Program-made: the position numbers and the translations under genes
The notes under the pieces: model-generated
Database searches by the model: none
Told to the model about the DNA's origin: nothing
What the model saw: the letters and a program-made list of their open reading frames with translations, nothing else
In this document: positions 13,793 through 42,301 of the stretch, piece by piece
How the letters are laid out: every line of letters begins with the position of its first letter
Numbering within the stretch: the stretch's first letter is position 1
NCBI GenBank assembly: GCA_963934015.1
Contig: CAWVWT010000001.1
Location: forward strand, 120,574 to 184,573
DNA length: 64,000 bases
Direction of reading: 5' to 3'
DNA from: an uncultured Candidatus Poseidoniales archaeon
GTDB taxonomy: Archaea; Thermoplasmatota; Poseidoniia; Poseidoniales; Thalassarchaeaceae

Positions 13793-13796
<4 letters not shown>

Positions 13797-18437: not shown

Positions 18438-19124
18438 TCATTCCCCGCCTACGGCGGGGAATGGCTCACCTTCGAAGATATGCGGCCAAAGCAGCCGGCA
18501 ATCCTTTTCCTGAACGTGTACGACACCTGCTTGAGCAAATCCATCGATGGCAATTTGTTTCTGTCCATTAAATCCAATAAAACCTGAACCTGGAATTCTC
18601 ATACTCAAATCGGTATGGTTGTCGCCGATACTCACGATCTCAGCGGCGTCCAAGTTGTGAATTCTTGCCATTTTAGCGACCATTTCTTCCTTGTGATGGG
18701 CTGGAACTCTAACCTCACCATCATCCAACAAAAATCCATCATCATCATACTGAAACCCATTGGCGATCCAATCATCAACTTTGAGGATCTTCGCAATCGA
18801 ACCAATGAGAAGGTCGACACCAGCGCTAACAATGGCAACAAGAATACCACGTGACTGTAACGCTTCGACGAGTTCCCGCGCTCCAGTCATCAACTTAACG
18901 CCCTGATAACAGCGCATCAATTCATCTCGATGGATTTGAGGTTGCACACTCTTCCACAGGCCGATATCATCAGCCATGAATTCGGCGTCACTCACCTCTC
19001 CTCGAAGGAAGCGATCAAGCATTTCCCCACTATTCGTACCGAAATGCTCGTGAATAATTCGCCATGAGGAGATGGTATCGATCAACACACCATCACAGTC
19101 GAAACAAACAGCCTTGATTGACAT
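18438..19124 (-). CDS. HAD-superfamily hydrolase, phosphoserine phosphatase (SerB)-like
   Basis: ATG at 19124 (MSIKAVCFDCDGVLIDT, HAD motif I DxDG). ...AIVSAGVDLL..., K...GDNHTDLSM follow (motifs II-IV in SerB-like order). The track ORF starts 41 codons upstream with a non-conserved extension. Confidence 0.72.
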   Translation of the reverse strand: MSIKAVCFDCDGVLIDTISSWRIIHEHFGTNSGEMLDRFLRGEVSDAEFMADDIGLWKSVQPQIHRDELMRCYQGVKLMTGARELVEALQSRGILVAIVSAGVDLLIGSIAKILKVDDWIANGFQYDDDGFLLDDGEVRVPAHHKEEMVAKMARIHNLDAAEIVSIGDNHTDLSMRIPGSGFIGFNGQKQIAIDGFAQAGVVHVQEKDCRLLWPHIFEGEPFPAVGGE

Positions 19125-19182
19125 AGGAACACCGTATGTACCGACGAAAGGGTACCCGGTCAAGAAGGAATGGGAGCAAGGA

Positions 19183-19259
19183 CCCCACTCCGCCGAAGCG
19201 GAGTGGGGGCTCAGAGGGGGCACCCGAAGGGCGCCCCACACTGCCACCGTTCGGGTGGC
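19183..19259 (-). other. Three consecutive GC-rich stem-loops between the giant gene stop and the serB-like/ABC/amylase operon
   Basis: Stem-loop 1 (19183-19208): CCCCACTCCGC-CGAA-GCGGAGTGGGG, 11 bp perfect. Stem-loop 2 (19214-19237): GGGGCACCC-GAA-GGGCGCCCC, 9 bp with one A-C mismatch. Stem-loop 3 (19243-19259): GCCACC-GTTCG-GGTGGC, 6 bp. Confidence 0.6.
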
Positions 19260-19284: not shown

Positions 19285-22200
19285 TCAGAACACTGCCTTC
19301 AAACTTGGCGGGTTGTACTGCGCTGCGAATGTCATCAAGATGACAGCGGTACCACCAGCTGGTGCGTACTGCAGTGTAACCTGTGCGTTCTCAATGGTCT
19401 CACCAGATGTTGGGTCAACCATGCGTATTCGGATCTCGTCAGAGGCTCCAAATCCTGCGGAACAATCTACGTTACAATCGATGCTATCCTTGTAGGTCAC
19501 CAACGCTGAGCTGCTGCTCGGAGCGAATCCGTACACGCCATCAGGGTTGGCCAAACTGGTACGCTCACTGTGAACTGTACCTGCTTCATCAGTCCATTGA
19601 ACAACAACATACACTGCCTGAGTGGCAAGTTCATTGTCGTGAGTTTGGACGTTGATGTTCCAATACAAGTTACCCTGTGGATCATCAATCACTGCTTCAG
19701 GACCAAAGGTCAAACGAGGAGTTGCCTTTCCGCCTGCATCTGAGGCTAGGCTGTTTGCCCAGACATAGATTACACCGGACAGGACCACAGTGATTGCAAC
19801 GAGTAGAATCGTTGCAATCACTGGGCTAACTGCCGCATCATCGTCGGAGAGGGACTCCATGAGTTCCTCTTCGTCTTCCTCTCGGCGGGAGCCCATGAGG
19901 AGAGCGCCAACAAAGGCGCCCACCAGACTCACTGCCATGAGGCCCGGGGCGAAGCTAGCAACCGAGGTTGCTGGGCGAAGACGTACCATCTGTGGTAGTT
20001 CCTGTGCCGTGTCGTCCGTGGTCATGTTGTTGTCCTCCCAGTTCTTCTCTTCAAGCACAGGTCGACGGATCGAGTTGTCGATGTAATCATCTGTGTGCGG
20101 GTTAATCGTTCGCACTTCGATGAAGGCTCGTACCTGCTCAGATGGGTTGTTCAGAGTCACGTATCCGTTGATTACTGTCGTCTCGCCAATACCTGGCACT
20201 TCACCAGCGTCCCAGGACAGTGTTATCTGTTCCTGAATCAGTGTTGGGTTGTCGTCCACGTAGAAGCGAACCTGCACATCGTGTCCGTAGTTGTACAGAC
20301 TTGGGTCATCACCAGTGTTGGTGATGATCACGTCGACTGGCACGCGCGTACCTGGTAGCACTGCATCAATGGTGTAGAAGTCAAATCCAGGTCGCTCGTT
20401 GTCAGGTTGCCCTGCGTTCAAGTTACAGTCACCAGCTTCTTCACAGAATTGGTAATCTGGTTTTGCTTCCTCAACATTCGTTACCTTGATGTGAATCGTC
20501 TCACGGATACTGCGCTGCTCGTAAACACCTGAGGGGCTCTGCGCGTAGTCGATGTGACTTGGCGCTGAAGCCGTATCGTGCATCCAAAGATAGACAGTAC
20601 AGTATTCACCACTCGCAGGTCGCGCCTGGTGTACACCACCATCGGCGACACCGTCACCGTCTGCATCCTGCAAGAAGTCAATCTCGGTGGTTGGAGCATT
20701 GGTTGCTGCATCATCAATCAGGTCGATTGAAATTGTGTCATCATCGTTGTCCACTGTAATCGAGAAGTAGTTCTCGTAAACACACAAGGATGTCTCTTCA
20801 ACTGACCACATCAACTGGTCAACCGGGTGATCGTTGTCAGCCATAAGGCGACTTAGATCCCAAGTCAAGTTGCTGGCGTCCTCATCGTCTTCCGTGACTT
20901 CCCACATCCAATCTAGTTCCATGTTGCCGTTAGCAACTTCAACGAATTGGTTGTTGTTAGCATCGAAGTCCAAGATTTGAGGCTGGTCGTTGACCGGGTT
21001 CACAATGAAGTTCACCGTTACATCCGATGCTTCCGCGTTAGCGTTTGCATTGTCTGTTAGACTGAGCACGATGTCACAGTCGCCACCGGCCTCGTTCAAG
21101 GTGTTTTCAGCAATCGTGAGTACGTTCGACCCAATGTCTGAAGCGAATGGCACACAAGTGCCCTCATCCTCAGTCCATGTGTAGATCTGTGGTACCGACT
21201 CTGTGTTCCAATCCGTCTGTGACTGCTCGTTCGCCATATCGACGACGTACGAGCGAGTTGCGTTGGACGTGTCACCAAGTTCCTTGGTGATGAGACCGTT
21301 GAAGTTCTCATCGTGGACGTTCAGGTTACCGTCACCGTCATCATAGAAGACTGGTTGACAGTCGAAGCGGTTCGTGTTACAGATCTCTGGTGCGTCGTTG
21401 ACGTTCCAGATACCGACTTCCATCGTCTGCGTTGCGCTGAGACCGTCACTGTCTGTGACAGTCAGCTGCAGGCGGTGGCCTCCGAACTGATTCTCGAGTG
21501 TATCAACACCCAATGTCTGACCAGCCAAGCTGTAATCATACGGTGTTGGGTAACTGTGAGAGTTCGTCGAAGCGTCTGTCACAGACCACATCAGACCCGA
21601 GGATGCATCCTGATAGTCGCTGCCCTTGTCGGTTAGCGTAATCGTATGCGATCCTGAATCTTCATCGTATGATACATCTACCAAGTTCTCGATGATTGGC
21701 TTGGCACGCATGATATCGATTGTGATATCCTGGTTCGTCGTCATCACCAGTGGTGCGACGGAGTCGTCCCAGTCCCAGTAGTCGCCTTCCGCGTTGCGGA
21801 CCTTGACCATGATCTGGTATGCGTGTGGGTCACCTGGAGCGCTACCTGTGCCAACGTAACTTCGCAATAGCAGCAGGTGGTCATCCAGTGTACCGTCAGC
21901 GAGGTCGCCTCCAACGAGGTTGAAGTTACCGAACTGACCGAAGGTCTGACCCGAGGTTGTTGTTGCATTGAATGGCTGTTCTGGGAACACGCCTGCAACT
22001 TGACCATCTTGGCCGAATGGGGAATCCCACTGTACCATTGCAATCCAGCGAACATCTTCAGTTGGGTTACCAAGGCAGTCCCATGGAACACGGAATTCAC
22101 TCACTGGAGTGGTCGTGTACGGGTTGCCCATGAAGATACTCGAGGTGATTTGCGGGCAACTTGAGGTCACATCGACCCAGTTACCTGTTGGCATGACCTT

Positions 22201-25200
22201 GCGCAGACCCCAGTTGTTGAGATCTTCCATCCACAGCATGTAGTCTGCCTTGATTGGCAGAGTGTGCTGTGAGTGCCAGTTGTCGCCAGTTGACGAACCA
22301 CCTGGAGCTGTGTCGAGGTAGAACAGACCATCCGTTGTCACGAAGGTTGGACCCACGAGTGCAACGAACATGTAGTTCGAATCCCATGTCACGCGCATGT
22401 GCGCCTGTGTGGTTGCGTTCACAGCAACTGCACCGGGCATCATGTCGTCGGCTTCGTTCAGCATGTTGGTACCGAGCCAATCCCAGAGGATACCATCAAC
22501 GGTGATGGTTCGGCCAGGGCTGCTTCGCCACGATGGGCTGACATACTCGGCGCGACCACCAGGCACAGCAACTTGCTCGCCTGTAGCGTAGTTGGTAGCC
22601 ATGGATAGGCTGCGGATGTACAATCCAACATCAGTGGCTGGGTTGCCCATGTGTAGAACGGTCAAGTCCAGGAGGTTGCCCTCGTGAACAATTGCGTCTG
22701 CATCGACAGTCAACTTGCTTGGCATCCACTGGCTAATCATGGAACCATTGTTGAGTACACCGTTACCGATACTGGTTACCGTTGAGAACGGACCTGCATT
22801 GATTTGTGTTGCAACGCCTCCACAGCTTCCCATGTTAGCTGCAATCCATGCTGGATCAGCTGAGTAACACGAGTAGGTGTCTTCCCACATGAGTGGGATT
22901 TCCATCAGACCATACAAGGGGTGATTGTAGTTGTGAATACCCGACATGTTCTCGATGGAGCCTGTAGCACCATTGATTGTCTTGAGGACTGTGTGTCCCT
23001 GAGCAAGACCGCCATTCCAACGGAAGTCGTCGTGGCCATCAGCAAGAACACCAACCGCAGCATTGACCGATAGTCCGGTCATGTCAAGGTCGTGGAATCC
23101 GCTCTCAGTCACAGCATTGAGACCTACACCGTAGGTTCCGTTGGCTACAACTGTTGCACCGTTCGTTGATACATCGACGTTTGTCACTTCAACAGCTGTT
23201 GCATCACCGAGGATGGTGGTGCCGCCTGCCATGTGCAGGTCACCGCCTTCCATAGCAAGACCAAGACCGTATCCAGTGACCATCACACCGTTCAGTGTGA
23301 TGTCGTCGCCGCTACCCAAGATATCGATACCAGTTGTCTGTAGGTTGTTACCTTGACAATCTGCGACATTCACTGAGCCAGTCATCGTCGTTACTGTCGA
23401 GCTGAAGTACGTGAAGTTGCCCGCATTCGTGAACTGATGCACGAAAGACGAACCGAGGTTCATCGTTCCGCTGTCCCAGCTCTCTGCTTGACCAGCATCA
23501 GATGTGGTCGTGTGTGGGGTGTTCGTACTACCATATGCACGAGATGTCCAGCGTACCGAGTCACCAGTACAGATACTGGTTAGGTGTGCTGGGCTGTAGG
23601 TACTCTGCTGGATGTCCACGTTGTGGATCCGACCTGCGCCGCCACCGAGACCGGTGTACACTGAGTTGTTGTCAGTAACCGTACATCCGTCGGAGTTGAC
23701 TGCGTTCATCACGGTCGATACCACGTTGTTTGCCATGAATACTTCATCCAAGCCACAGGCGTCTAGGTAGATACCAATAGCACTGGTTGGCAAACGGCCG
23801 GCTGAGAAGCCGATCGTGTTGTCATTGATGTAAACATCATTACCACTGGTAATACCACTAATTGCGATACCACCATCGGCATCCAGACAGGTATTACCCT
23901 CTATGGTTCCCGAACCTGCTAGCGCGTAGATACAAGCATGTGATGCATCTGAATCACCAGTAATATGGTTGTTCATGATGGCCCAATCTCGAGCACCGCG
24001 CATGTAGATTGGATTGTCAGAGGACAACGTGTTATTCTCGAGGTTGAGCCCGAAGACCGTGTAGTCCTGAGTGTATACCGTATATCCGCTCAGACTCGAC
24101 ATGGTGTTGCCGCTGACGATTGGATCGTGCGAGTTAGCATTGAGGTAGAACCACATGCAGAGGTTTGCACAATCTTCCATGCTGTTGTCACTAACTACCA
24201 GGTTTCGCTGACCGTTACCACCGTAGTAGGTGTTGGTCGCGTAGTAGTTGCTAGGTACGAATACACCAACACCACAGTTAACCATCGTGTTACCCGAGAT
24301 TACTACATCATCGTATCCAGCTGTCTGGATGCACATGTCATCGTAGTAAACCGAACTTGCACCGTTTGGAATGTTGGTTGCTGAGTCATAGTGGACCAAC
24401 AGACTGTTGGTCACTTCTAAGTCACCGTTGTTCTGGTAGTAACCACTGCCAGTTCCAATCGCTTCCAAACCGAGCAAATTGCTGTTGTTGATGTGGAAGT
24501 TACCGTAATTGGAGGTTCCAGAGTATCCTACACGGAAGTGACCCTTCACAGCACCCTTGTCACACATTGAGATGATTGTTGTGTCGTCCATGTATACGTG
24601 ACCCGTGTATGGGTATACTGTGTACATCTGGACCTGACCATTGGAACATCCCGTTGTGAAGACAGTGGAACCATTCAGCGAGACTGAACCTGATCCGATG
24701 TCGAAGTAATTGAACGGCGTGTCCATCTGAATGATCATGTTAGACATGTCATTTTCAGAGTTGTAGTAACCAATCTCATGAACATTGTCAACCGTGCGGT
24801 CACTTCGATAGTTCAAACCAGTACAAGCGGCCTGCAAATCGTAACTTGTCGTCGAATAGCTGTAACACGTACGCGCGTCAATCGATGCGGTCAATGCGGT
24901 GTTAGCCGTATTTCCTGGTGCGTCGCTTAGCGAGATTGTGTTCATTGCATATCGTATGTCAATGACCGAGCCTGATGTGTAGGCAATGGTTGCAATTGTG
25001 ACCAATTGGTAGCCTGCGAGGTTCGGTGATGTGATACCTGAACTGTCCTTCGACCATACGACGAAGGACATACCGATAATGTCACCATTGCTGTCAGTTC
25101 TACCAGAGTCAACTGCCATGTTGTCGGCATCCAGAATCTTAACTGGTGCATCGTCAACTCCGCTTCCATCAGCAGTGATTTGAATATCCAACGCACGTAG

Positions 25201-28200
25201 GCGAGTGAACTTCGACATGTCACTGGTCGTTACCTTGGATTCGGTGATATCACCTTCAAGGTAATCCATCCTTGCACTGCCACTCATGGCCACATCTTGC
25301 GCGTTACCAGTCATGGTTGTGTCAGACATCGACATCATACCTGAACCGTCGTGGGTAATACCCACGGCGTTATTGTTCAGATTCAATCCGTCAAAGCTCC
25401 AATCAGCATCGTTTGTAGCGAGGACCTTCAGACCACAGTAACCTGCGTTCTGGATGGTTCCACTCAAATCAAGATTCATCGACTTCGATAGAACAACACC
25501 GTCTTGCGACTGGTTGTCTAGGTCAACGTTGCTTAGAACCAACTTCCCACCTGCTGCACTGCCCATGCGGACACCGTAGCGGCCATCATCAACAGTGATC
25601 TGGTCCATGGTAGCACCTACGCTACCTGAGACGAGAATACCCTCATTCACCGGGTTGGTGATGGTGATATCACTGAAGGCACCGGATGCGATGTCGCCAC
25701 CGATATCAATACCAGTATCTGCACCGGTGATTTGGCCGTTACTGATATCTGCAGTACCGAAGTCACGACTGTAATCCTTACTCAATAGATCAGTAATCGT
25801 GCTGCCCGCGCGGACAGTGATGTCCAAGCGGTCTTGGTAGTAGTCTGCACCGTAGTGGACCATGTCCACGTACATGACAACCTGCTCGATGCTTGAGCTG
25901 CTGGTGTCAACAACCGGGTAAGTCATTCGATATCCTGCTGGCACTGGTGTTGCTGGACCGTATGCGTAACTCTGGCATACGTTGTAGCTACCCCACATTC
26001 CGTTGAATCCTTCAGGAGGAGCAAATGCTGTTCCTGCGTGGTAGAAGCTAGGCCAGTAACTACCCCAATACATGTATGGATAGTAGTTGGTGCTCGCCGT
26101 TACGCCAGGTACACTCTCGATTCGGAATCCGAATTCGTTCGGCTCGTTGTTGTAGTTACCATTCATTGTGTACGCTCCGCCGCCGTAGGCGACGAAGTAG
26201 TAGTAATACGAATACTGGTAGGAACCACCTGGGTTGTACTTGTAACCGTAAAGGTTGCAATCCCAAATCGGTGCACCACCGCGGGCGCCGCTCTCGTAAG
26301 TGGCGACACCGCCGGTACCCGATGCTGGGTCATTTGCGCTGTACGGATAGTAACCGGTTACACTCGAGTCAGTGACGTTGTTCAGGCCTGTGCCATCACC
26401 GTCATCGACTGCGATTCGCCAGCGATCTGTGGTCATGAAGTACTTACCGTAGTACGAACCGCGAGCTGGATCCGAGTTACCGCCACCATACACGATGTTG
26501 GTACCAAGTTGCACGTAGTTGTTGTTCTTCGCAAACGAAGTAATGTCAATTGCGTACGTGTTCCAACCTGCACTCTGACCGCTAAGGATGGTCGAGCGGT
26601 ACAGAGTTGGTAGACTCATACCACCATCGACGACCATACCGACTGTGTTGTCAGTCAGAGTAAATCCATCGATGGTTGGTGCTGCGTCAGTCACCTCAAT
26701 GCCCACTGCCGAGTTCTTGACAAGGACGTTTGAGAGGCTGCTCGCTGCCGTGTTCGTCATTCGAATACCGATACCCGAATTGACGTTTTGCACACCAGCA
26801 TTGTTGATAATCAACGTACCACCATCGACATCGATAGTTGCTGTGGATGCTGCAGCGTTTGGACTGCCATAGACAGTCGAACCGTTGCGCATCTCCACAA
26901 TGCCACCGTCGCCGACCGCAAGGCCGCCGTTCATGTCGCGGATTGAACCTGCATCAATGGTCAACTGACCATTGCTGGTTATGTCCATCTCCCACCCATA
27001 TACACTGGACTGAGCCTTGATGTGACCGAAGTCACCATCGTGCTCACTGATGAGCAACTCAGCACCATTTAGCAATGTGATGGTTGGATTGTTGGCTGAT
27101 GTAACGTTCATGCGTAGCGAAGTTCCCTGAAGGTGTACACTGCATCCGTCCAAGACCATGTCCGCGGACAAGGTGATGATTTGACGGGTGTAGGTGTAGT
27201 ATCCATTCAGTGACGATGCCGAATCGTTGTTGCTGAAGAACGTACAGTCCTTGGTTGCGCCACCGAAGTCCATCGGGAATGCCTCAAGCTGGAGGTAAAC
27301 GTGTGATCCAACCTCAAGAGGTAGGTCACTCGATGGGAAATCCGGGTTGTGGCTTGCTGTGTACCATAGGTCCGTTGGTGTCGTGACGTTCTGACCTGCA
27401 CCACCCGCTGCACGGAGGGTATGGTCAGTGTACGATGCCGAGGAACTGGTTGCACCAGTGTTGTCACGCTCGTAAAGGTCTGTGACTAGCCAAACGTTTG
27501 CTGCTCCAGCGCCATCAGTCCTGCTGGTGCCGATTTCGAACAATTCTGTGCCTGAGCTGTCGTGAACCGCTGCTGCAACGTTGTGGTTTGCCTGGAAGGC
27601 GTTACCACTGTTACCTGAACGATAAACTGAGACGGTTCCAACGCCACCGAAGTAAATCTTGGCGGAACTGGAGGCTGCGTCGACCCAGCAGACCGATGTG
27701 TCGGCTTCATTGTTGGAATCGAGACAATCGTTACCATCGAAGTTCACATCAATCAAGCGGATGTCACCGTTTGTTCCAGCGCTTGCAAGGTTATTGCCCC
27801 AGCTGGTCATACCTGTTATGGTCATCTCAGCGACTGTCAGAACACTGTTACGCGCGTACGCGTAGTTACTGTTGCTCGAGTCACCAGCCATTGTACCATC
27901 TGAAATGGTCACAACGTTGCTGCTAGCTGACGATGCGCAGTTTGCACTGACCCATGCGTCTTGAGAACCATCACCGAGATTTACATCACTGAGAGTTACC
28001 CTCCAACCACAACCATTGATTGTGATTCCGGATGCACCAACAGAGTCTCCAGAGACCATGTTTGAACTTGGTGCGGTACCCGACAGTTGTAGGGCGCCTC
28101 CAAGATCGACATTGTCCATGCTTGCTGGCTGTGTGCGTGCCATTGTAAGGCCGCCATCAGCGCTGACACCATCCATGGTCCATCCTGTTGCACCAATTGC

Positions 28201-31200
28201 TGGGCTGCTTGCGCCCGCAGGTGTTACAGTGTAACCATTCGAGTCACCCGTACTGTCGACTTCTTCCATGTGGAGGCTGTCGGTTGCGTGGGTTGTGGCT
28301 GCAGCAAGATAGTTGCTGATGTCTACATTGTATGCGTAGAAGTCAGTACCACTGGTTGCAGTTCCAGTCTGGGCGACGCCCGTACCGGTCTGCTGCCATG
28401 AGAATCCACTGCTAGCATCCACGGTGACGTTGGACAGCCATAGGCTGTCTGCCTCGCCGATGATACCGTTGACGGCTGCATTGGTAATGTCGACGTTTTC
28501 CATCACGATTGTTGAACCATCGCCCGTATTGACTGCGCCTTGGCCAGCGTATCCGTGCGTGTTACAATTAGTGGCGGAGCCACCAACCCAAGTTAGTGTT
28601 GCGTCATCTGGTAGATCGACACAGGAGTCAGCACTGTTTGAGATGCTGACACCGGATAGGTCGAATCCTGTACCTTGACCACTGCCGTGCTTGATTGCCG
28701 TTCCAACATTGTTGAAGGTAACATCACTCATTGTGAAGTTCCCAGCATTGCCGTTGTAGTGAGGGGCTGCGCCGTTGCGGCTGCCCGCACTGATGGCAGT
28801 TGTCAGGTTTTCGAAGTTCACGTGGGTGAACGTGTGGCGGTCATCATTGCCAGCACTGCATCCACCGTTGGTGAATGCTAGGCCCTGTGCATAGTTGGTA
28901 CCCATGTTGGTAATTGTAACCGGGTTGGTTGAGTTTCCATCAACCATCAACTTGTTGCACGCACCAGTAAACGCGATACCCTTGCCCTCAGCAATCTGGA
29001 CTTCAACACCAGGCATGATCGTTAGATCTGCACTGACGGATAGCCAGTCGCCGCTGGATGGGTTCACACGGATTGGGCTCTGTTCGATATCCCAAATCGT
29101 TGGTGTGGTAATGTCCGAGGTTACGTCCATACCTGATCCATCGAATGGAATCAGCTTCGAGCGGATACTGCACTCTGAACCAGAGTTGTAGTAGCAGTAG
29201 TATGCTGCGTAGTAGCCCCACCATGGTGCAAGATCGACGTTATTCACATACGTACCTGAACTTGGCAGGGTTGGCATGGTCGTTCCCCAGTTTGAGCTCA
29301 TCATCTGTGCACTGTTGGTTGAACTCGAAGTACTGAACTGCATTGCACCGTGGCGGATTGCGTGGATCTTGTGACCCTGCGTACCGTTGAAGGTGCTACC
29401 AAAGTATTCGAACTCGAAATCGTTTGGTAGGTCAATGACCGTACTGCAGTCACCGCGATACTGTGTGAAGTAACGTGTGCAGTAGTACGTGTATGGGTTG
29501 CCGTTGCTGCTGCCGGTAAATTCTTCGTTGTAGTTAAACAACTCAGTCATTCCTGCAGAGTACGTCTCGTAGCCATAGTCGTTGCCATCAGTAGCAATAC
29601 GGAAGTTATTGGCAAATGGATTTTGGCCACCAATGTATCCTGCTCCGCGCGTACGTAGTTGCTCACCAACATTGGCTGCCGGGTTTTGGAAGCCAATGTA
29701 CTGGTAATCGTAGTACGCGCTACTGCTCGTGTCATACTCGAATTCGACCTCGTTGGTGACATCATACAGGCGGACCTGATAATTGACATTGTAACCGGAG
29801 TTGAATCCAGCTGTCATGTCGTGCCACTCAAGAACGAAGATCTTGGTCGGTGTTGCGATGTCGTAGGTGAAGGAACTGGTGTTTTCCCAGTTGCCATTGT
29901 TGTCCACAGCGCTGATTGTGTATTCGACGGAGTTTCCACGGTCTGTACCGGGGATACTTGTCGACCACTTACAAGCAGTCATCACACAAGCACTGCGGGA
30001 TGAATCTGGTGTCATGGAACGTGTTGTCCATGCTGACCAAGAGCCCGCATCTGCATCGTAGATTCGATAGTCCATGGATGGACCGACTAGGCCGTCACCA
30101 TTGTCTGTTGTATTGGTATTCAGACCTACTGGTGGGTCGCCCGGATCGCCGATTGTCATCGACAACATACGGTCTTCATCAACATAGGTGTCCATCATAC
30201 CAGGGTGGTCAATTTCCGGTGGGAAAGTGTCCGGTGCTGGCTTGATTGAACTGACCTTGGAATTGACTTGCCATCCAGTGTTGACCTTGCCGTCCCATCC
30301 TGGGTTGGACCAACCGTTCCATGCGTAGTTGTACTGGTAGTAGTAGTACGTACCATAGCATGGGTTGGTGTATGTCGAACCTGAATAGGTCGAACGAACG
30401 AACATAATTGGGTTGTTGTTCGTGTTGATACAGAACAAGTTGCGGTTTGCGCTGTTCAGGTTGTATGTTGCGTTCCATGAGAACGCACCGAAGTAACCGG
30501 TGATGTCACCAGGGATTGCAACCTTAACGTAGCCGTCATCTGTGCTGCCGTAGTCTAGACTGGTGTAAACTGTACCTGCACCTTGTGGTTGCTCGATACC
30601 GTTGCCACTCGAAGCCTCATAGCCCATGACGCCCCATCCACCGGATGCGGTGCCATCATGGTACCAGATTACGTCGTGACCGGGACCATCCTTGGCATTC
30701 ATAGCCATGCCAGGGACGTTTACCTTGTCCAAGTTTGCTTGGCAGGTCGTCGATGTGCATACACGTGTTGTGCCTGGGTAGTATCGTAGATCAAGTTGTG
30801 CACTCGTAGAGAAGCAGGACAGAGAGCCCATGCCACAATCCGTTGTGTCGTATTCCATGTGATACTCACGGCTTGGCTCGTAGTAGGTCAACTGCCAGTC
30901 GTAATAGCGCTGTGCACTGTAATACGAGTAGGAGTTCCATCCACTTGCCTTCACTTGCCACTTGCTGTCGCCATCGGCTGCATTGTCGATGGATTCAATC
31001 TCGTAGATCCAAGGTGAACTTGGGTGTGTCTGCATGTTGCTTGGGATACCTGTTCCACCGGCTGGTGTTGTGCCAGTAGTACCCGATACACCACCGTTAG
31101 GTGGGGCTGGGGAGTCACGGTATGCCCAGTAGTATTCCACTTCCGTTGTACCAGTCGCCGGAGCAGACTGGGCTGGGATTGTGGCCTTGAAGTTGCAGGT

Positions 31201-33090
31201 AAGACCTGCTGTGCAGGTACCGAGCGTAGTTGCACTAACGCCGTTCCATGAACCGCCATCAACACGGTAGTACAGGTGGGGTGCTCCTGCACTTGTGGTG
31301 TTGACACCGCTTGCATCGACTGCGCTCATGTACATTGTTCGTGCACCATCGAGGTAGGTGGTCTTACCATCGAACCCAACAGCGTCTGCAATTGGAGCCG
31401 TGGTGTCTGATCCACCTGTGTATGTAATCTCAAGATGAGGCTTGTACGCTGCGCTGGACTGGCAACCGTAGTAGGTGTAGGTGTTCTGAGTACACCAATA
31501 CCACATTGGAGAGTTTCCAGAGGAACGGACAGCGAGACCGAGAATGTTACCGCTGCTGCCTGCACCATTACCGTCAACCGCATCCTGAACATCGGACTCA
31601 CCATTCGAATTCATTGAAATCGATTTGATGCTTCCTGCGTTGTAACCGTAGTAGTAACCAGGGTCACTGATTGTGGTTGAAGCAGATGATGCTGCAGAGT
31701 TTACTGCATATCGGTGGATGTACATACCGGAGCTGTAGGTGTAACTTGCAGGGTCAATCATTGTGCTGCTCTGTGAGTTGCCGCTCTTCATGACTGCAAC
31801 TGTGAAGCTGCGTGAACCAGTTCGGTAACGACCGACGTGGTTCTCAAAATCGACACCTGTCACTGTTGCACCGGATGGCATGGTGTTTGCCAAGTTGAAT
31901 CGGTGAACTGCTGTGCGCTCATAGTGCGAGTACGAAGTCGAACTCGTGCATGTGCTAGCACCGCCACTACCGGTTCCCTTGCAAGTATAGGTGATGAACG
32001 AAGTTGAGTAAGCTCGCTCATAACTGTAAGAAGTCCAACCGTAGTTGACCGTGTACTTGTAGGAGTAATAGGTCGTTGCAGCTGTTACATCGATTGTTGG
32101 GTCGATCATAATCGGGTAAGTACGGTTCTCATCCATCAGCCACTCCGAATCAATCGAAGTGGTGATTTGGACGTGTTCGCCGATTTGCATAATGAAATAT
32201 TGACCAATACCTGGTAGAGCATCTGCATCGGATTCGTAAACCAGAGGAGCTGGAACTGTTACAAGCAGTTCTCCAGTCTCCACGTTTCGAATTTCAAACT
32301 GCTCATCTGTCTTCAGCACTGCACCCTCTTGTAGAGGACTTGTGCCTTCGAAGACGGAATATCCGTGTGGAAGAAGCATTTCTTCCTGCAGACCAAGCCA
32401 GCCATCAAATTCCTGACCGAAGAACGGCTGGTCACGAATGACCAAGTTCTGCTTGACTTGTGTGCTGGTCACCGTGTAATCCAGAGCAATGCCCTGGCCC
32501 ATCGGATAGCGTAGCACATTGCCAGCTGACTGTACAGGCTCTTCTGTTTCGTCGAGTTCATACATCATCGGATTTGACATGTCGCTCTGCATTTGCACAA
32601 CGACAGGGTTGATACCCATACGGATGGCATCGATGTTGTCATCGACTTGAATTACCACACCGTTATTCATATCAGCCTCGAAGTAAGTGTCGAAGGTGTT
32701 TTCAGTCACCGACCAACCATTTGCTTCCGATTCGATGTTCAGGTCGATCTCTTGCCACGACCCATCATCACCAAGGTAGTGGATTGGATCAGTGGTTACA
32801 ACTGCAACCTTACCCTCGTCCGTCACGTACGTCTTGGAGGTCGCAGTTCGACTTCCGACGAGTTCATTTTCGTCAGCATAGCCAAACTCGGTGAAATCCA
32901 CCGCTGCATATTCCTCCACGTTGAGAGCAAACATATCCACCGCATCATTTGCTTCTGCTTCATCAACCGATGTGGCTGATACAGCGTCGCCTGCAGGTGG
33001 TACCGCTTGGGCCCAACTCATTCCTATCATCAATAGCGTGAGCAACAGCCAACTGCCGCCCAACACCTTCTTGTTTTGTTTTGTCACCAT
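19285..33090 (-). CDS. Giant (~4600 aa) secreted cell-surface protein with parallel beta-helix-type repeats, Tyr/Asn/Thr/Gly-rich regions and C-terminal cadherin-like (VNDxP) repeats. A TM anchor with acidic tail runs on into the pilin-like module.
   Basis: A single stop-free frame spans 13.9 kb. The likely start is ATG 33090 (MVTKQNKKVLGGSWLLLTLLMIGMSWAQA signal peptide); the track start at 33261 is a TTG with a non-signal extension. Beta-helix-like repeats include NAVGITHDGSGMM. Cadherin-like hallmarks are LTVTDSDGLSATQTMEVGIWNVNDAPE and VNPVNDQPQI. The C-terminus has ..FAPGLMAVSLVGAFVGALLMGSRREEDEEEL.., then pilin. Confidence 0.8.
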   Translation of the reverse strand: MVTKQNKKVLGGSWLLLTLLMIGMSWAQAVPPAGDAVSATSVDEAEANDAVDMFALNVEEYAAVDFTEFGYADENELVGSRTATSKTYVTDEGKVAVVTTDPIHYLGDDGSWQEIDLNIESEANGWSVTENTFDTYFEADMNNGVVIQVDDNIDAIRMGINPVVVQMQSDMSNPMMYELDETEEPVQSAGNVLRYPMGQGIALDYTVTSTQVKQNLVIRDQPFFGQEFDGWLGLQEEMLLPHGYSVFEGTSPLQEGAVLKTDEQFEIRNVETGELLVTVPAPLVYESDADALPGIGQYFIMQIGEHVQITTSIDSEWLMDENRTYPIMIDPTIDVTAATTYYSYKYTVNYGWTSYSYERAYSTSFITYTCKGTGSGGASTCTSSTSYSHYERTAVHRFNLANTMPSGATVTGVDFENHVGRYRTGSRSFTVAVMKSGNSQSSTMIDPASYTYSSGMYIHRYAVNSAASSASTTISDPGYYYGYNAGSIKSISMNSNGESDVQDAVDGNGAGSSGNILGLAVRSSGNSPMWYWCTQNTYTYYGCQSSAAYKPHLEITYTGGSDTTAPIADAVGFDGKTTYLDGARTMYMSAVDASGVNTTSAGAPHLYYRVDGGSWNGVSATTLGTCTAGLTCNFKATIPAQSAPATGTTEVEYYWAYRDSPAPPNGGVSGTTGTTPAGGTGIPSNMQTHPSSPWIYEIESIDNAADGDSKWQVKASGWNSYSYYSAQRYYDWQLTYYEPSREYHMEYDTTDCGMGSLSCFSTSAQLDLRYYPGTTRVCTSTTCQANLDKVNVPGMAMNAKDGPGHDVIWYHDGTASGGWGVMGYEASSGNGIEQPQGAGTVYTSLDYGSTDDGYVKVAIPGDITGYFGAFSWNATYNLNSANRNLFCINTNNNPIMFVRSTYSGSTYTNPCYGTYYYYQYNYAWNGWSNPGWDGKVNTGWQVNSKVSSIKPAPDTFPPEIDHPGMMDTYVDEDRMLSMTIGDPGDPPVGLNTNTTDNGDGLVGPSMDYRIYDADAGSWSAWTTRSMTPDSSRSACVMTACKWSTSIPGTDRGNSVEYTISAVDNNGNWENTSSFTYDIATPTKIFVLEWHDMTAGFNSGYNVNYQVRLYDVTNEVEFEYDTSSSAYYDYQYIGFQNPAANVGEQLRTRGAGYIGGQNPFANNFRIATDGNDYGYETYSAGMTELFNYNEEFTGSSNGNPYTYYCTRYFTQYRGDCSTVIDLPNDFEFEYFGSTFNGTQGHKIHAIRHGAMQFSTSSSTNSAQMMSSNWGTTMPTLPSSGTYVNNVDLAPWWGYYAAYYCYYNSGSECSIRSKLIPFDGSGMDVTSDITTPTIWDIEQSPIRVNPSSGDWLSVSADLTIMPGVEVQIAEGKGIAFTGACNKLMVDGNSTNPVTITNMGTNYAQGLAFTNGGCSAGNDDRHTFTHVNFENLTTAISAGSRNGAAPHYNGNAGNFTMSDVTFNNVGTAIKHGSGQGTGFDLSGVSISNSADSCVDLPDDATLTWVGGSATNCNTHGYAGQGAVNTGDGSTIVMENVDITNAAVNGIIGEADSLWLSNVTVDASSGFSWQQTGTGVAQTGTATSGTDFYAYNVDISNYLAAATTHATDSLHMEEVDSTGDSNGYTVTPAGASSPAIGATGWTMDGVSADGGLTMARTQPASMDNVDLGGALQLSGTAPSSNMVSGDSVGASGITINGCGWRVTLSDVNLGDGSQDAWVSANCASSASSNVVTISDGTMAGDSSNSNYAYARNSVLTVAEMTITGMTSWGNNLASAGTNGDIRLIDVNFDGNDCLDSNNEADTSVCWVDAASSSAKIYFGGVGTVSVYRSGNSGNAFQANHNVAAAVHDSSGTELFEIGTSRTDGAGAANVWLVTDLYERDNTGATSSSASYTDHTLRAAGGAGQNVTTPTDLWYTASHNPDFPSSDLPLEVGSHVYLQLEAFPMDFGGATKDCTFFSNNDSASSLNGYYTYTRQIITLSADMVLDGCSVHLQGTSLRMNVTSANNPTITLLNGAELLISEHDGDFGHIKAQSSVYGWEMDITSNGQLTIDAGSIRDMNGGLAVGDGGIVEMRNGSTVYGSPNAAASTATIDVDGGTLIINNAGVQNVNSGIGIRMTNTAASSLSNVLVKNSAVGIEVTDAAPTIDGFTLTDNTVGMVVDGGMSLPTLYRSTILSGQSAGWNTYAIDITSFAKNNNYVQLGTNIVYGGGNSDPARGSYYGKYFMTTDRWRIAVDDGDGTGLNNVTDSSVTGYYPYSANDPASGTGGVATYESGARGGAPIWDCNLYGYKYNPGGSYQYSYYYYFVAYGGGAYTMNGNYNNEPNEFGFRIESVPGVTASTNYYPYMYWGSYWPSFYHAGTAFAPPEGFNGMWGSYNVCQSYAYGPATPVPAGYRMTYPVVDTSSSSIEQVVMYVDMVHYGADYYQDRLDITVRAGSTITDLLSKDYSRDFGTADISNGQITGADTGIDIGGDIASGAFSDITITNPVNEGILVSGSVGATMDQITVDDGRYGVRMGSAAGGKLVLSNVDLDNQSQDGVVLSKSMNLDLSGTIQNAGYCGLKVLATNDADWSFDGLNLNNNAVGITHDGSGMMSMSDTTMTGNAQDVAMSGSARMDYLEGDITESKVTTSDMSKFTRLRALDIQITADGSGVDDAPVKILDADNMAVDSGRTDSNGDIIGMSFVVWSKDSSGITSPNLAGYQLVTIATIAYTSGSVIDIRYAMNTISLSDAPGNTANTALTASIDARTCYSYSTTSYDLQAACTGLNYRSDRTVDNVHEIGYYNSENDMSNMIIQMDTPFNYFDIGSGSVSLNGSTVFTTGCSNGQVQMYTVYPYTGHVYMDDTTIISMCDKGAVKGHFRVGYSGTSNYGNFHINNSNLLGLEAIGTGSGYYQNNGDLEVTNSLLVHYDSATNIPNGASSVYYDDMCIQTAGYDDVVISGNTMVNCGVGVFVPSNYYATNTYYGGNGQRNLVVSDNSMEDCANLCMWFYLNANSHDPIVSGNTMSSLSGYTVYTQDYTVFGLNLENNTLSSDNPIYMRGARDWAIMNNHITGDSDASHACIYALAGSGTIEGNTCLDADGGIAISGITSGNDVYINDNTIGFSAGRLPTSAIGIYLDACGLDEVFMANNVVSTVMNAVNSDGCTVTDNNSVYTGLGGGAGRIHNVDIQQSTYSPAHLTSICTGDSVRWTSRAYGSTNTPHTTTSDAGQAESWDSGTMNLGSSFVHQFTNAGNFTYFSSTVTTMTGSVNVADCQGNNLQTTGIDILGSGDDITLNGVMVTGYGLGLAMEGGDLHMAGGTTILGDATAVEVTNVDVSTNGATVVANGTYGVGLNAVTESGFHDLDMTGLSVNAAVGVLADGHDDFRWNGGLAQGHTVLKTINGATGSIENMSGIHNYNHPLYGLMEIPLMWEDTYSCYSADPAWIAANMGSCGGVATQINAGPFSTVTSIGNGVLNNGSMISQWMPSKLTVDADAIVHEGNLLDLTVLHMGNPATDVGLYIRSLSMATNYATGEQVAVPGGRAEYVSPSWRSSPGRTITVDGILWDWLGTNMLNEADDMMPGAVAVNATTQAHMRVTWDSNYMFVALVGPTFVTTDGLFYLDTAPGGSSTGDNWHSQHTLPIKADYMLWMEDLNNWGLRKVMPTGNWVDVTSSCPQITSSIFMGNPYTTTPVSEFRVPWDCLGNPTEDVRWIAMVQWDSPFGQDGQVAGVFPEQPFNATTTSGQTFGQFGNFNLVGGDLADGTLDDHLLLLRSYVGTGSAPGDPHAYQIMVKVRNAEGDYWDWDDSVAPLVMTTNQDITIDIMRAKPIIENLVDVSYDEDSGSHTITLTDKGSDYQDASSGLMWSVTDASTNSHSYPTPYDYSLAGQTLGVDTLENQFGGHRLQLTVTDSDGLSATQTMEVGIWNVNDAPEICNTNRFDCQPVFYDDGDGNLNVHDENFNGLITKELGDTSNATRSYVVDMANEQSQTDWNTESVPQIYTWTEDEGTCVPFASDIGSNVLTIAENTLNEAGGDCDIVLSLTDNANANAEASDVTVNFIVNPVNDQPQILDFDANNNQFVEVANGNMELDWMWEVTEDDEDASNLTWDLSRLMADNDHPVDQLMWSVEETSLCVYENYFSITVDNDDDTISIDLIDDAATNAPTTEIDFLQDADGDGVADGGVHQARPASGEYCTVYLWMHDTASAPSHIDYAQSPSGVYEQRSIRETIHIKVTNVEEAKPDYQFCEEAGDCNLNAGQPDNERPGFDFYTIDAVLPGTRVPVDVIITNTGDDPSLYNYGHDVQVRFYVDDNPTLIQEQITLSWDAGEVPGIGETTVINGYVTLNNPSEQVRAFIEVRTINPHTDDYIDNSIRRPVLEEKNWEDNNMTTDDTAQELPQMVRLRPATSVASFAPGLMAVSLVGAFVGALLMGSRREEDEEELMESLSDDDAAVSPVIATILLVAITVVLSGVIYVWANSLASDAGGKATPRLTFGPEAVIDDPQGNLYWNINVQTHDNELATQAVYVVVQWTDEAGTVHSERTSLANPDGVYGFAPSSSSALVTYKDSIDCNVDCSAGFGASDEIRIRMVDPTSGETIENAQVTLQYAPAGGTAVILMTFAAQYNPPSLKAVF
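19288..19860 (-). CDS. PilA-type archaeal type IV pilin-like module (191 aa), in frame with and read through from the giant upstream ORF
   Basis: Internal ATG at 19860 preceded by purine-rich GAGGAAGACGAAGAGGAACTC. The sequence MESLSDDDAAVSPVIATILLVAITVVLSGVIYVWANSL closely matches Haloferax PilA prepilin N-termini (..[32 protein letters not shown]..). A ~150-aa beta-rich domain follows. Confidence 0.5.
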
Positions 33091-33423
33091 TCTAGATACC
33101 CCAGAGTGTCCTATGAACAGATGTTCGACGTTCTGACGCAGATATAACCGTATGGGTGCAAACTCTTTGATTATCCAATTCTGTTCGGTAAACTGCGTAG
33201 GAATTATTGAGTGCCTGAAATGCCCAATAATTAGTGGTACAAACAATTTGTAACAATCCAAAAGATGAGGGGGGTTTCCAATGGCAATTACAAAATAAAT
33301 GATGATTTGAACGAATTAGAGGGAATTAAATTAATCACTAATCCGGCTCGCAGTAAGCCAGATTACCTCGCGAATAATGTCGGAGCTTCGGGTTTTCCAG
33401 ATCATATTCGAATTACCTGAAAC

Positions 33424-33461
33424 GAAAAAAAGGACCGGGCCCCCGTAGGGGGCCCGGTCCA
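33424..33461 (-). terminator. Intrinsic-terminator-like element: a perfect 13-bp GC hairpin followed by T7 on the minus strand, about 50 nt downstream of the 33512 gene stop
   Basis: Plus strand reads AAAAAAA-GGACCGGGCCCCC-GTA-GGGGGCCCGGTCC. On the coding (minus) strand the hairpin is followed by TTTTTTTCG. Confidence 0.6.
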
Positions 33462-36772: not shown

Positions 36773-36819
36773 TTTACAGTCCTCCCTCACAGTGGGTGCT
36801 TCGCCACAGAAAAACTTTG

Positions 36820-41548: not shown

Positions 41549-42247
41549 CTATTCCTCTTCTCCAATACGACGATCTTCAGTGATTCGACCGTCGTGCATG
41601 ACCAGTACCCGAGAGCAACGATCAGCAATCTCAGAATCGTGTGTCACGAGGAGTAACGTAACCCCGTGTTCAGCATTCAAACTCAACAATAAATCAATAA
41701 TTTCATCGCTGGTTTGTGAATCGAGGTTTCCGGTCGCCTCATCAGCAAAAATCACAGCAGGGTCATGCACAAATGAACGGGCAATCGTGACACGCTGCTG
41801 CTGTCCACCGGACAACTCAGAGGGTAAATGCCCCTCTCGATCTGCCAACCCAACCGCATCTAGAGCAGAAAGGGCGCGTTCACGGGCCTCACGAGGGGAG
41901 CATCCAGCCATCAATAGTGGTAATTCGACATTCTCCACTGCAGTCAATACTGGTAAGAGATTGAATGACTGGAAGATGAAACCCAATTGTGATCCACGCA
42001 ATGCTGTGAGTTCATAGTCGGACATCTGTGACAATGCCTGACCGTGAATAAAAACATCTCCTGCCGAAATTTCATCTAGCCCTGAAAGGCAATTGAGCAG
42101 TGTTGTCTTTCCACAACCACTGGGACCCATGACAGCAACCATTTCGCCGGGTTTCAGTGATACGCTAACCTTGCGAAGAGCTTCAACCCGGTTTGTACCG
42201 GTTTCGTATACCTTCCACAATTCACGTGCTTCGAGTACAGTCGTCAT
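41549..42247 (-). CDS. ABC transporter ATP-binding protein, MacB/LolD type
   Basis: Start at ATG 42247 (MTTVLEARELWKVYETG...). Walker A GPSGCGKTT, signature LSGGQQQRVTIARS, Walker B IFADEATGNLD. The track ORF has a 55-codon non-conserved upstream extension. Confidence 0.88.
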   Translation of the reverse strand: MTTVLEARELWKVYETGTNRVEALRKVSVSLKPGEMVAVMGPSGCGKTTLLNCLSGLDEISAGDVFIHGQALSQMSDYELTALRGSQLGFIFQSFNLLPVLTAVENVELPLLMAGCSPREARERALSALDAVGLADREGHLPSELSGGQQQRVTIARSFVHDPAVIFADEATGNLDSQTSDEIIDLLLSLNAEHGVTLLLVTHDSEIADRCSRVLVMHDGRITEDRRIGEEE

Positions 42248-42301
42248 GACTTCCTGTGGGTGGAGCAGGGATATAACACTCCGTCTTGCAGCAGACCGCT
42301 G

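Follow-up and report, generated by a model that had tools for sequence, protein, structure and literature searches.

In the 64,000-nt window analysed here, a stretch of contig CAWVWT010000001.1 from an uncultured Candidatus (Ca.) Poseidoniales archaeon, the minus strand carries a single uninterrupted open reading frame (ORF) of 13.9 kb (19285..33261) which encodes a giant surface protein ending in a pilin-bearing cassette. Counted from TTG 33261 the frame comprises 4,658 codons, and since a stop-free run of this length in DNA of about 50% GC excludes a chance origin, the giant ORF is real. The TTG is merely the first possible start downstream of a stop. Judged from the translation and the N-termini of orthologs, the true start of the gene is ATG 33090 (33088-33090), because this codon opens a Sec-type signal peptide and because both start and signal peptide are conserved: equivalents were found in the orthologs of loci L071/L072 and also of L090-L095, L111 and L112, the latter three groups sharing 52-59% identity over the signal-peptide end (aa 1-49). 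A preliminary description, made from the letters alone, had reported the uninterrupted frame and favoured the internal signal peptide at 33090 over TTG 33261 as the N-terminus, and both points were borne out. The product (coding 19288-33090, minus strand) has 4,601 aa, 493 kDa and a pI of 4.1. Its composition (G 10.3%, T 9.6%, S 9.4%, N 7.3%, Y 5.4%; K+R 3.8%) confirms the Thr/Ser/Gly/Asn/Tyr-rich character described before; the accompanying remark that the protein is not acidic is weak given this pI and K+R content, which resemble those of every other secreted protein of the window. Tandem Repeats Finder (TRF) found 0 DNA tandem repeats in the gene, and an exact-sequence look-up of the protein returned no database record. 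Sequons of the N-x-S/T type number 29 vs about 64 expected from composition, an approximately two-fold depletion that is surprising for an archaeal surface protein.

The C-terminal 225 aa constitute a cassette, composed of a transmembrane (TM) helix of the SFAP type (TM1), an Arg-Arg pair, a predicted cytoplasmic loop of about 20 aa ending in D-(D/E)-x-Ala, and a complete type IV pilin. The local sequence reads ...VASFAPGLMAVSLVGAFVGALLMG-SRR-EEDEEELMESLSDDDAA-VSPVIATILLVAITVVLSGVIYVWANSLASD..., and is followed by a domain of about 150 aa. The pilin match, which lies about 180 aa from the C-terminus (aa ~4420-4463), was the only above-threshold family match in the whole giant protein, with 30.9 bits for Pfam Pilin_N PF07790 (cut-off 25.2) and 34.6 bits for TIGR02537 (cut-off 20). 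The pilin alpha1 helix is invariant in 110 homologs. AlphaFold2 (AF2) modelled the tail as a helix of 29 residues leading into an all-beta head, with a predicted local distance difference test (pLDDT) score >90. In Foldseek the head reached a probability of 1.00 with two structures, the pilus subunit 8rey of Cuniculiplasma, a relative within the Thermoplasmatota, and archaellin 5z1l of M. maripaludis, at low target TM-scores of 0.38-0.42. Sequence searches of the PDB with the tail matched solely subunits of solved archaeal filaments. Val4421 aligns, residue for residue, to residue 1 of mature Iho670 (VSPVIATLLL...), and the precursors of the solved pilins 8gi2 (Natrinema PilA2), 8fj5 and 9myg have acidic leaders ending SDEERA↓VSPVIG, FNDDSA↓VSPVIG and SDNERA↓VSPVIG (the arrow marks the actual or putative cleavage position). 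A free-standing pilin of Marine Group II (MGII) archaea, P0120, combines the leader end '..NDEA↓VSPVIATILMVAITVVLAG' with the same helix as the giant protein. By sequence and predicted structure, the tail of the giant protein is thus a complete type IV pilin with its leader.

We then examined the conservation of the cassette among relatives in GTDB species-representative genomes, of which at least 529 loci encode one; counts out of 80 refer to the best 80 of these. At the putative cleavage site the -1 Ala is present in 80/80 loci, D or E at -3 in 78/80 and D at -4 in 75/80, and positions +1 to +3 are always VSP. All loci share the tripartite PGF-CTERM-type pattern V.SFAP(G/S), about 20 hydrophobic residues and (S)RR, the conservation of TM1 being confined to the V.SFAP start and the following Arg. 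Over the 80 species the pilin helix and VxSFAP are invariant while the rest of the giant protein is only about 40% identical. Across the 80 loci no Met is conserved in the loop, which led us to reject separate translation of the pilin from an internal Met; moreover, the pilin-fused frame is open upstream as far as the locus edge in 73 of the 80 loci, all from short-read metagenome-assembled genomes (MAGs). Together, these two results indicate that the pilin fusion is genuine.

The 280 homologs listed for the C-terminal 330 aa all stem from MGII (Ca. Poseidoniales, Poseidoniaceae, Thalassarchaeaceae) marine metagenomes or MAGs, and the best 80 of the at least 529 GTDB loci are likewise all MGII. 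The nearest relatives are MED-G33 and Thalassarchaeum of subgroup MGIIb, in which the tail is 80% identical and neighbouring genes are up to 92% identical. The cytoplasmic proteins of the window have pI values of 5.2-6.5, only its secreted proteins being strongly acidic, and no homology search that was run returned a haloarchaeal homolog of the giant protein. Judged by these comparisons the source organism is a marine MGIIb archaeon (Thalassarchaeaceae) and not a halophile, and the halophilic context assumed in the preliminary description was wrong. A collinear ortholog of the giant protein exists in both MGII families over the whole length at about 33-50% identity; aa 1000-4601 are collinear and about 40% identical in 80 GTDB species of both families, and aa 1-1000 are 33-47% identical in marine contigs. 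The best 80 loci fall in 80 separate assemblies, which fits one giant-gene copy per genome, apparently throughout Ca. Poseidoniales. An exhaustive HMMER search, covering 1.84 billion representative sequences, retrieved independent full-length gene calls of 4,372-5,559 aa that share the C-terminus at their extreme end, and word-index homolog searches gave at least 5 matches for the central 800 aa and at least 1 match for an 18-sequence profile. On these alignments the giant gene is a slowly evolving order-wide ortholog, unlike a fast-evolving repeat adhesin, so that rarity, as suggested earlier for such giants, is the wrong frame. Public records of the homologs carry automatic names only, e.g. 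'type IV pilin', 'flagellin-like' or 'FlaG/FlaF family'.

According to the exhaustive HMMER search the TM-loop-pilin tail is also carried by shorter, unrelated proteins with lengths of 816-2,785 aa. The loops of these proteins are basic and textbook-like class III leaders, e.g. SRRRKKGRGKDDDA↓VSPVIAIILMV and RRLREEKEA↓VSPVIATILLV. In some cassette relatives TM1 opens with PGF(V/L)PS, as in P0139 and P0141, and closes with RRR; P0141 additionally shows clear Pfam matches to Beta_helix (three) and NosD (two). In locus L169/L170 a free pilin of 182 aa comes after the cassette-bearing protein P0223. Its leader and helix, MKRFMSREKRA↓VSPVIATILLVSITVV, mirror the internal loop and helix of P0223, and its head shares 36% identity with the P0223 tail (E=6e-22). 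One gene further on in L169, the product has PGFAPS-TM-RRRR as its terminal signal (PGFAPS..RRRR as the last residues). The mirrored free pilin and the terminal signal of the adjacent gene suggest that the cassette is composed of a PGF-CTERM-type sorting signal and then a prepilin. In the flanks of the MGII loci the SFAP-TM motif occurred 85 times, with a pilin after it in 85/85 cases. One ENA contig of 3,002,195 bp is recorded with three nearly identical giant paralogs, P0139, P0274 and P0275, of 4,371-4,377 aa; they share at least 90% identity, and each combines the pilin cassette with a PGFLPS-type TM1. P0139 is collinear with the giant protein of the window at 33-36% identity. The free pilin P0120 (L084-L087) adjoins three glycosyltransferases and a polysaccharide-synthesis flippase-like gene; its placement with a pilus machinery was rejected on account of this neighbourhood, which lacks pilus assembly genes.

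From the tail, its invariance and its portability we derive a model, given about an even chance, in which a giant envelope protein carries a cassette that is cut by prepilin peptidase into an anchored ectodomain and a minor pilin. In the topology proposed, the N-terminus and the ectodomain would lie outside, TM1 would run inwards, the loop would be cytoplasmic, the pilin helix would run outwards and the head would again be outside; this would bring the cleavage site to the cytoplasmic side of the membrane, on which prepilin peptidases work. The loop would serve as an internal class III signal, and the prepilin peptidase of the cell would cut after Ala4420, a cleavage that we infer from the sequence context. 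Each giant protein would thereby be separated into its ectodomain and one mature 181-aa pilin. The freed ectodomain could be held by TM1, or by a lipid anchor if an archaeosortase acts on the PGF-like TM1, and the released pilin may enter, prime or cap a filament built of free MGII pilins. Because free-standing MGII pilins have an identical helix, the released pilin should be able to join the same type IV filament. Since one 0.5-MDa protein would be spent per pilin, the pilin would have to be a low-copy (minor, tip or base) subunit, and the cassette would tie the filament to the envelope protein both spatially and numerically. Positions of the cassette, of the remaining modules of the protein and of the neighbouring genes are compiled in Table 1.

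Table 1. Features of the giant gene and its neighbours in the window; aa positions refer to the 4,601-aa protein.
Feature	Window position	Strand	Evidence
HAD-IB phosphoserine-phosphatase-like hydrolase, probable start Met42 (nt 19124)	18438..19247	-	Pfam HAD; TIGR01488 88.7 bits, cut-off 45
Pilin head, all-beta, aa 4452-4601	19288..19737	-	AF2 pLDDT >90; Foldseek
Type IV pilin alpha1 helix, aa 4421-4451 (VSPVIATILLVAITVVLSGVIYVWANSLASD)	19738..19830	-	Pilin_N, TIGR02537, PDB pilins 8gi2, 8fj5, 9myg, 5kyh
Predicted cytoplasmic loop, putative internal class III leader, aa 4401-4420 (SRREEDEEELMESLSDDDAA)	19831..19890	-	Predicted prepilin-peptidase site after Ala4420
TM1, PGF-CTERM-like ('SFAP', hydrophobic helix, Arg-Arg), aa 4377-4400 (VASFAPGLMAVSLVGAFVGALLMG)	19891..19962	-	Hydropathy; AF2 helix 304-323
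Juxtamembrane beta-sandwich (Ig/CARDB-like) domains, aa ~4101-4376	19963..20790	-	AF2 model m48516d69f8c5 residues 15-250
Cadherin-like units (at least 2), '..VTDSDGL...V.V.NVNDAP' motifs, aa ~3790-4100	20791..21723	-	Ortholog profile A5 vs PDB
Conserved region without assigned fold, aa 3420-3790	21721..22833	-	Alignment A6, 49% mean column identity
Cupredoxin (plastocyanin/amicyanin-like), degenerate here, aa ~3155-3250	23341..23628	-	Ortholog profile vs PDB: amicyanin E=4e-12
PbH1/NosD-like beta-helix block 3, repeated 'I.GNT/NN.I' units, aa ~2911-3140	23671..24360	-	NosD in orthologs; hhalign-delimited
Right-handed beta-helix block 2, aa ~1945-2170	26581..27258	-	AF2 model m909d9bcbcdfe residues 545-770, pLDDT 60-89
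Right-handed beta-helix block 1, aa ~1401-1785	27736..28890	-	AF2 model m909d9bcbcdfe residues 1-385, pLDDT ~55-87, regular short strands
Most conserved ectodomain block, aromatic- and Cys-rich, NIDO-like module, aa 1010-1400	28891..30063	-	Alignment A7, 57% mean column identity
N-terminal conserved region without assigned fold, aa 30-1009	30064..33003	-	Collinear, 33-47% identical, at least 20 marine loci
Start codon and Sec-type signal peptide, aa 1-29 (MVTKQNKKVLGGSWLLLTLLMIGMSWAQA)	33004..33090	-	Translation; ortholog N-termini
GC-rich hairpin (GGACCGGGCCCC...GGGGGCCCGGTCC) then T7, terminator-like	33425..33460	-	Read from sequence; between p1092 and giant gene
p1092, 1,092-aa secreted protein with C-terminal TM anchor	33512..36790	-	TM segments; weak cadherin-like similarity to giant protein
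1,543-aa duplicated FtsX/MacB-type ABC permease, large extracytoplasmic domains	36905..41536	-	Pfam FtsX x2, MacB_PCD; weak NCBIfam LolC/E, ADOP
LolD/MacB/FtsE-type ABC ATPase	41549..42412	-	Pfam ABC_tran; NCBIfam YbbA and LolD 240-246 bits, under equivalog cut-offs

About 4,400 aa of the window protein, of which the ectodomain makes up about 4,350, were searched against Pfam and NCBIfam, whole and as nine overlapping 600-aa tiles (E≤1), and gave nothing above threshold, Pilin_N standing alone in the whole protein; full-length orthologs gave little more than the window protein. The N-terminal region contains a 'DPIHY..GSWxEIDL' sub-domain and Tyr/Ser/Thr-rich segments (alignment A9, mean column identity 61%), and searches with aa 1-1000, the ortholog profile included, found no Pfam or PDB match. 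Around '..RYPMGQGIALDYTVTSTQVKQNLVIRD..' (aa ~188-274, window 32269-32529) weak relatives of about 30% identity (E~1e-4) were observed in many human-gut bacterial metagenome contigs (L113-L168), which hints at a widespread unnamed domain. In the block of aa 1010-1400 Pfam NIDO PF06119 matches 8/23 orthologs (best E=8e-5), leaving the window copy unmatched, and a PDB profile search gave no match. For aa 3420-3790 there was no PDB match and no meaningful Pfam match in orthologs.

Evidence for beta-helices came from structure prediction and from orthologs. The AF2 model of aa 1401-2200 has an overall pLDDT of 63, rising to about 65-89 in two blocks. Without exception, its top 50 Foldseek matches in the PDB are right-handed beta-helices, and the PL6 alginate lyase 5gkd ranks first (E=5e-5); PL6 lyases, GH55, Ag43, pertactin, pectate lyases and tailspikes are among them. 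In block 3, Pfam NosD matches 3/18 orthologs (1e-8) and the profile weakly matches the beta-helix (mannuronate) lyase 7o79 (E=0.008). In the window protein itself no beta-helix family was matched by Pfam or NCBIfam, either whole or in tiles at E≤1. The idea that the beta-helix-looking stretches are paralogous repeats of one unit was rejected, with hhalign probabilities ≤10% outside the PbH1 block. Further towards the C-terminus, profile A5 (aa 3760-4100) matched CDHR3 (7e-6), a protocadherin (2e-4) and cadherin-1 (E-cadherin, 1e-3) in the PDB, and the cadherin-like unit at aa 3855-3960 has a homologous copy at aa 3961-4100 (hhalign 93%, E=3e-7); NCBIfam gave a weak tandem-95 match for this region, and Pfam was negative for the window copy. 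The juxtamembrane domains were modelled with pLDDT partly >90 and gave generic multi-Ig Foldseek matches. The preliminary description had named both beta-helix and C-terminal cadherin-like repeats and had offered profile searches as the check. Pfam on the window sequence was indeed negative for both, an outcome overturned by ortholog profiles and structure prediction, which uphold the beta-helix modules in substance, with at least three blocks, and at least two cadherin-like units.

Between block 3 and the region of aa 3420-3790 lies a cupredoxin, which Pfam Copper-bind recognises in 9/18 orthologs. The type 1 copper ligands (His, Cys, His, Met; His..Cys-x2-His-x2-Met) are intact in most Poseidoniales orthologs (among L005-L082), whereas the Cys and His have been lost in the clade of the window (window, L005-L009) and L011 lost the site independently. 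Where orthologs read Y-H-C-x2-H-x2-M the window protein has Y-F-S-S-T-V-T-T-M, and thus it lacks the type 1 copper ligand set. From the module set as a whole we infer a glycan- or particle-binding adhesin or an envelope matrix protein rather than an enzyme, in support of the earlier view of a giant secreted, non-catalytic-looking envelope protein. The cassette, the cupredoxin and NIDO-like domains and the ABC/FtsX neighbourhood were absent from that description.

Upstream and downstream, the gene is embedded in a conserved same-strand order of LolD/MacB-type ABC ATPase, giant FtsX permease, anchored protein of about 1,090 aa, giant gene and HAD phosphatase. The ATPase is syntenic in 6/6 loci extending that far, and the FtsX/MacB_PCD permease (1,400-1,540 aa) in 12 loci plus L088. 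In 19 marine loci, and also in L071, L072, L088 and L089, the gene immediately preceding the giant gene encodes a p1092 homolog (~1,050-1,090 aa); p1092 has no Pfam or NCBIfam family match and shows BLAST similarity to aa 3817-3896 of the giant protein (E=6e-4). The HAD-IB gene is the most consistent downstream neighbour, being directly 3' of the giant gene in 84 loci of both MGII families. For the sugar ABC transporter and the alpha-amylase, which are located farther downstream, synteny extends to only about 25-31 loci. Members of the LolCDE/MacB/FtsEX 'mechanotransmission' ABC class, to which the adjacent ATPase and the duplicated FtsX permease with its MacB periplasmic core belong, act on envelope proteins or lipoproteins outside the membrane. 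The window scores are, however, far under the equivalog cut-offs, and the permease is unusual in its 1,543 aa with very large external domains. A functional link of this ABC system to the giant protein would be based on synteny, and a terminator-like hairpin separates the genes. This hairpin is perfect, lies immediately past the p1092 stop codon and is followed by an AT-rich 330-nt spacer that precedes the giant gene. Hairpin and T7 ahead of the spacer suggest that the giant gene has its own promoter there and disfavour simple co-transcription with the ABC genes; the ABC-to-giant cluster is therefore probably not a single operon.

A shorter complete version of the gene was observed in two MGII species (L071:3125-10696 and L072:3251-10723). 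It encodes about 2,500 aa, keeps signal peptide and cassette and differs in its N-terminal half. The L071 protein matches the Pfam 'Lipoprotein_15' secreted repeat and, weakly, thrombospondin type 3; the p1092 homolog is still upstream in both.

Several observations weigh against cleavage by prepilin peptidase and against the accompanying view of the ectodomain. The supposed class III signal is internal: the loop occupies aa 4401-4420 in a chain of 4,601 residues and is preceded by TM1 and the Sec-exported ectodomain, whereas to our knowledge every known prepilin peptidase substrate carries this signal N-terminally. The MGII loop is strongly acidic (net -7) and has no basic -2/-3 residues as typical of many archaeal prepilins. 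TM1 gave no NCBIfam match to a curated CTERM sorting-signal model (E≤0.1), about 200 residues (loop and pilin) follow it so that its signal is not at the extreme C-terminus, and no terminal SFAP signal was found on other MGII proteins in the flanks. Genes for a type IV pilus (T4P) ATPase, platform protein or prepilin peptidase are not present in the 64-kb window, nor is an archaeosortase, and 1.7 Mb of flanks gave no motif matches to pilus ATPase, platform protein or A24 peptidase in any lineage. Partner machinery is a concern also at the level of genomes, most MGIIb being reported without archaellum loci (PMC6864105, PMC6461757). As to the ectodomain, the beta-helix evidence for the window copy is a moderate-confidence model built from a 6-sequence multiple alignment, and about 2,000 aa have no detectable relatives, which leaves room for an enzymatic activity.

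Part of this evidence favours an uncleaved two-helix hairpin, in which the pilin-like module would be a second span with a small external beta domain and would permanently dock the giant protein to a filament base or platform, in the manner of ArlF/ArlG, or to the FtsX permease. The archaellum stator proteins ArlF and ArlG retain an archaellin-like N-terminal helix. An internal signal unlike that of any known prepilin peptidase substrate, an acidic loop without basic -2/-3 residues and the lack of T4P genes nearby are what such a hairpin would lead one to expect, and it would also suit the label 'FlaG/FlaF family' given to members by JGI pipelines and the proposal that S-layer-less Thermoplasmatota anchor ArlF/G in an unidentified glycoprotein layer (PMC12448462). 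However, the invariant cleavage context (-1 Ala, VSP at +1 to +3) would be needless for a mere anchor, the loop resembles the leaders of free pilins (P0223/L169 and the solved haloarchaeal pilins), and TM1, the equivalent anchor helix, is much less conserved than the pilin helix; we regard the uncleaved form as rather unlikely. Less probable still, and doubtful in our view, is a dual sorting device made of an archaeosortase-type signal and an internal prepilin, by which a single translation product would give rise to one pilin and to a giant envelope protein held by lipid or TM anchor, with the adjacent ABC ATPase, FtsX permease and ~1,090-aa protein forming a machine that extracts or installs the pilin helix or TM1 without a canonical T4P ATPase, even though it would account for an invariant cassette in MGIIb reported to be without archaellum loci. 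That the giant ORF or its pilin fusion arose by mis-assembly, a lost stop or frame errors has a negligible probability: long-read, pilon-polished contigs do split the giant gene into many pieces, but the same contigs fragment housekeeping genes, and the open frames of the 73 short-read MAG loci, the several independent full-length calls of 4.4-5.6 kaa and a fusion junction that is the most conserved part of the protein rule this out.

With regard to the ectodomain, a structural role is a tentative possibility, slightly ahead of the uncleaved hairpin in our estimate and compatible with either the cleaved or the uncleaved cassette, which would install the protein in both cases. The giant protein would then be the main matrix protein of the MGII cell, forming its envelope or standing in for an S-layer, and not a specific adhesin, as its order-wide, apparently single-copy and collinear conservation at about 40% identity, unlike that of fast-evolving adhesins, its membrane anchor, acidity and very large size, and the unidentified surface glycoprotein layer of the S-layer-less Thermoplasmatales of the same phylum (PMC12448462) would suggest. 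On the other hand, cadherin-like, beta-helix, NIDO-like and Ig-like modules are typical of binding proteins, sequons at about half of expectation are odd for a glycoprotein coat, and a 0.5-MDa monomer is costly for an organism with a genome of 1.4-2 Mb. Much less probable is a surface polysaccharide-degrading enzyme, whose tandem beta-helix blocks would be a PL6-like lyase or GH55-like hydrolase acting with the nearby alpha-glucan genes. Two-domain PL6 alginate lyases and GH55 glucanases are the best Foldseek matches, a mannuronate lyase is weakly matched by profile, and GH57, GH13, GH77, phosphorylase and sugar ABC transporter genes are neighbours; yet neither the window protein nor full orthologs match a CAZyme family at the sequence level, TM-scores of the fold matches are low, with the non-enzymatic adhesins Ag43 and pertactin also among these matches, synteny of the glycan genes is limited to ~25-31 loci compared with 84 for HAD, and no catalytic residues were identified. 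A halomucin- or SPEARE-like protein of a halophilic archaeon, as the preliminary description had it, has scarcely any probability. Size and Thr/Ser-rich composition are the only points for it, the general likeness being that halomucin (Haloquadratum) and SPEARE (Nanohaloarchaeota) are very large archaeal envelope-associated proteins. Organism and habitat differ, the cytoplasmic proteins of this MGII archaeon are not halophile-like, mucin-like repetition is lacking (TRF, 0 repeats), Pfam/NCBIfam scans gave no serine protease, restriction-endonuclease or other nuclease domains, and the searches that were run found no homology to haloarchaeal proteins.

Cleavage by prepilin peptidase, the reading we prefer, can be set against known systems. 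With the archaeal Pilin_N pilins Natrinema PilA2 (8gi2), Cuniculiplasma (8rey) and Ignicoccus Iho670 (5kyh) the last 181 aa and their leader share D-(D/E)-x-A↓VSPVIA, an alpha1 of about 30 residues and the fold class of the all-beta head. In described archaeal pilins the class III signal is N-terminal in a small precursor, whereas here it lies 4,400 residues in, directly behind a TM helix; also, no assembly genes adjoin the giant gene, although the related P0223 adjoins a free pilin. The modular pilins PilB/PilC of Streptococcus sanguinis (PMC8179133) likewise join a pilin module covalently to a large adhesive module. There, however, the module is grafted C-terminal to the pilin and stays attached, whereas in the giant protein it precedes the cleavage site and would be severed. 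With PGF-CTERM/archaeosortase A substrates, e.g. the Haloferax S-layer glycoprotein, TM1 shares the (P/S)(G/S)F(A/V/L)P motif, the helix, the Arg cluster and the position at the end of a very large surface protein; the differences are that their signal is C-terminal whereas about 200 residues follow it here, that SFAP replaces PGF and that no CTERM hidden Markov model matches. Giant bacterial adhesins (Ag43, pertactin; RTX/Bap-type) resemble the giant protein in size class and surface display and in being built of cadherin-like, Ig-like and beta-helix modules, with no catalytic domain to be recognised, but they use type V or type I secretion, whereas the giant protein would use Sec and a TM/pilin cassette and is without tandem repeats, slowly evolving, collinear and apparently single-copy.

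MGII archaea are abundant in the ocean and uncultured, and their cell surface is essentially uncharacterised. A 0.5-MDa envelope protein conserved throughout the order is a candidate for how MGII meets particles, algae and viruses. If the proposed cleavage is true, the cassette would be, as far as we know, the first class III (prepilin) signal working inside a polypeptide, and it would link filament subunits to giant surface proteins in a new manner. Given a portable and invariant cassette of only ~225 aa, and Haloferax strains that possess or lack PibD or ArtA as genetic hosts, the cleavage hypothesis lends itself to direct testing. The database names need correcting, full-length members being called 'type IV pilin' or 'FlaG/FlaF flagellin' from 1% of their length. 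Published MGII genomics ascribed adhesion to archaella, flotillin and thrombospondin-like genes and left the giant protein unmentioned. Giant protein, internal class III signal and polyprotein pilin are not described in Tully 2019, Rinke 2018, Orellana 2019 or Damashek 2021, nor were they found in the archaeal T4P census (Makarova et al. 2016) or in targeted full-text searches; this result is provisional, as most subscription journals lie outside the searches. Provisionally, therefore, we have found no precedent for an anchor plus internal prepilin at the end of a giant surface protein.

Other parts of the window deserve mention in their own right. Positions 3191-18412, on both strands, hold a complete alpha-glucan utilisation locus in this MGIIb genome; oligosaccharide degradation has been described as mostly an MGIIa trait (Tully 2019). 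Its enzymes comprise a secreted 1,491-aa GH57 protein with a glucodextranase-type binding module, a GH77 protein, the product of a glycogen-phosphorylase-like gene and a GH13 amylase of 1,040 aa, likewise secreted, that bears a Pro/acidic repeat and an AMPK-type carbohydrate-binding module, and its sugar ABC transporter has a solute-binding protein fused to the permease (865 aa). Further envelope proteins are encoded at 49227-53384 (plus strand; 1,385 aa, PKD repeats) and at 60271-63630 (minus strand), the latter product (1,119 aa) carrying a signal peptide as well as a C-terminal TM anchor and matching no family.

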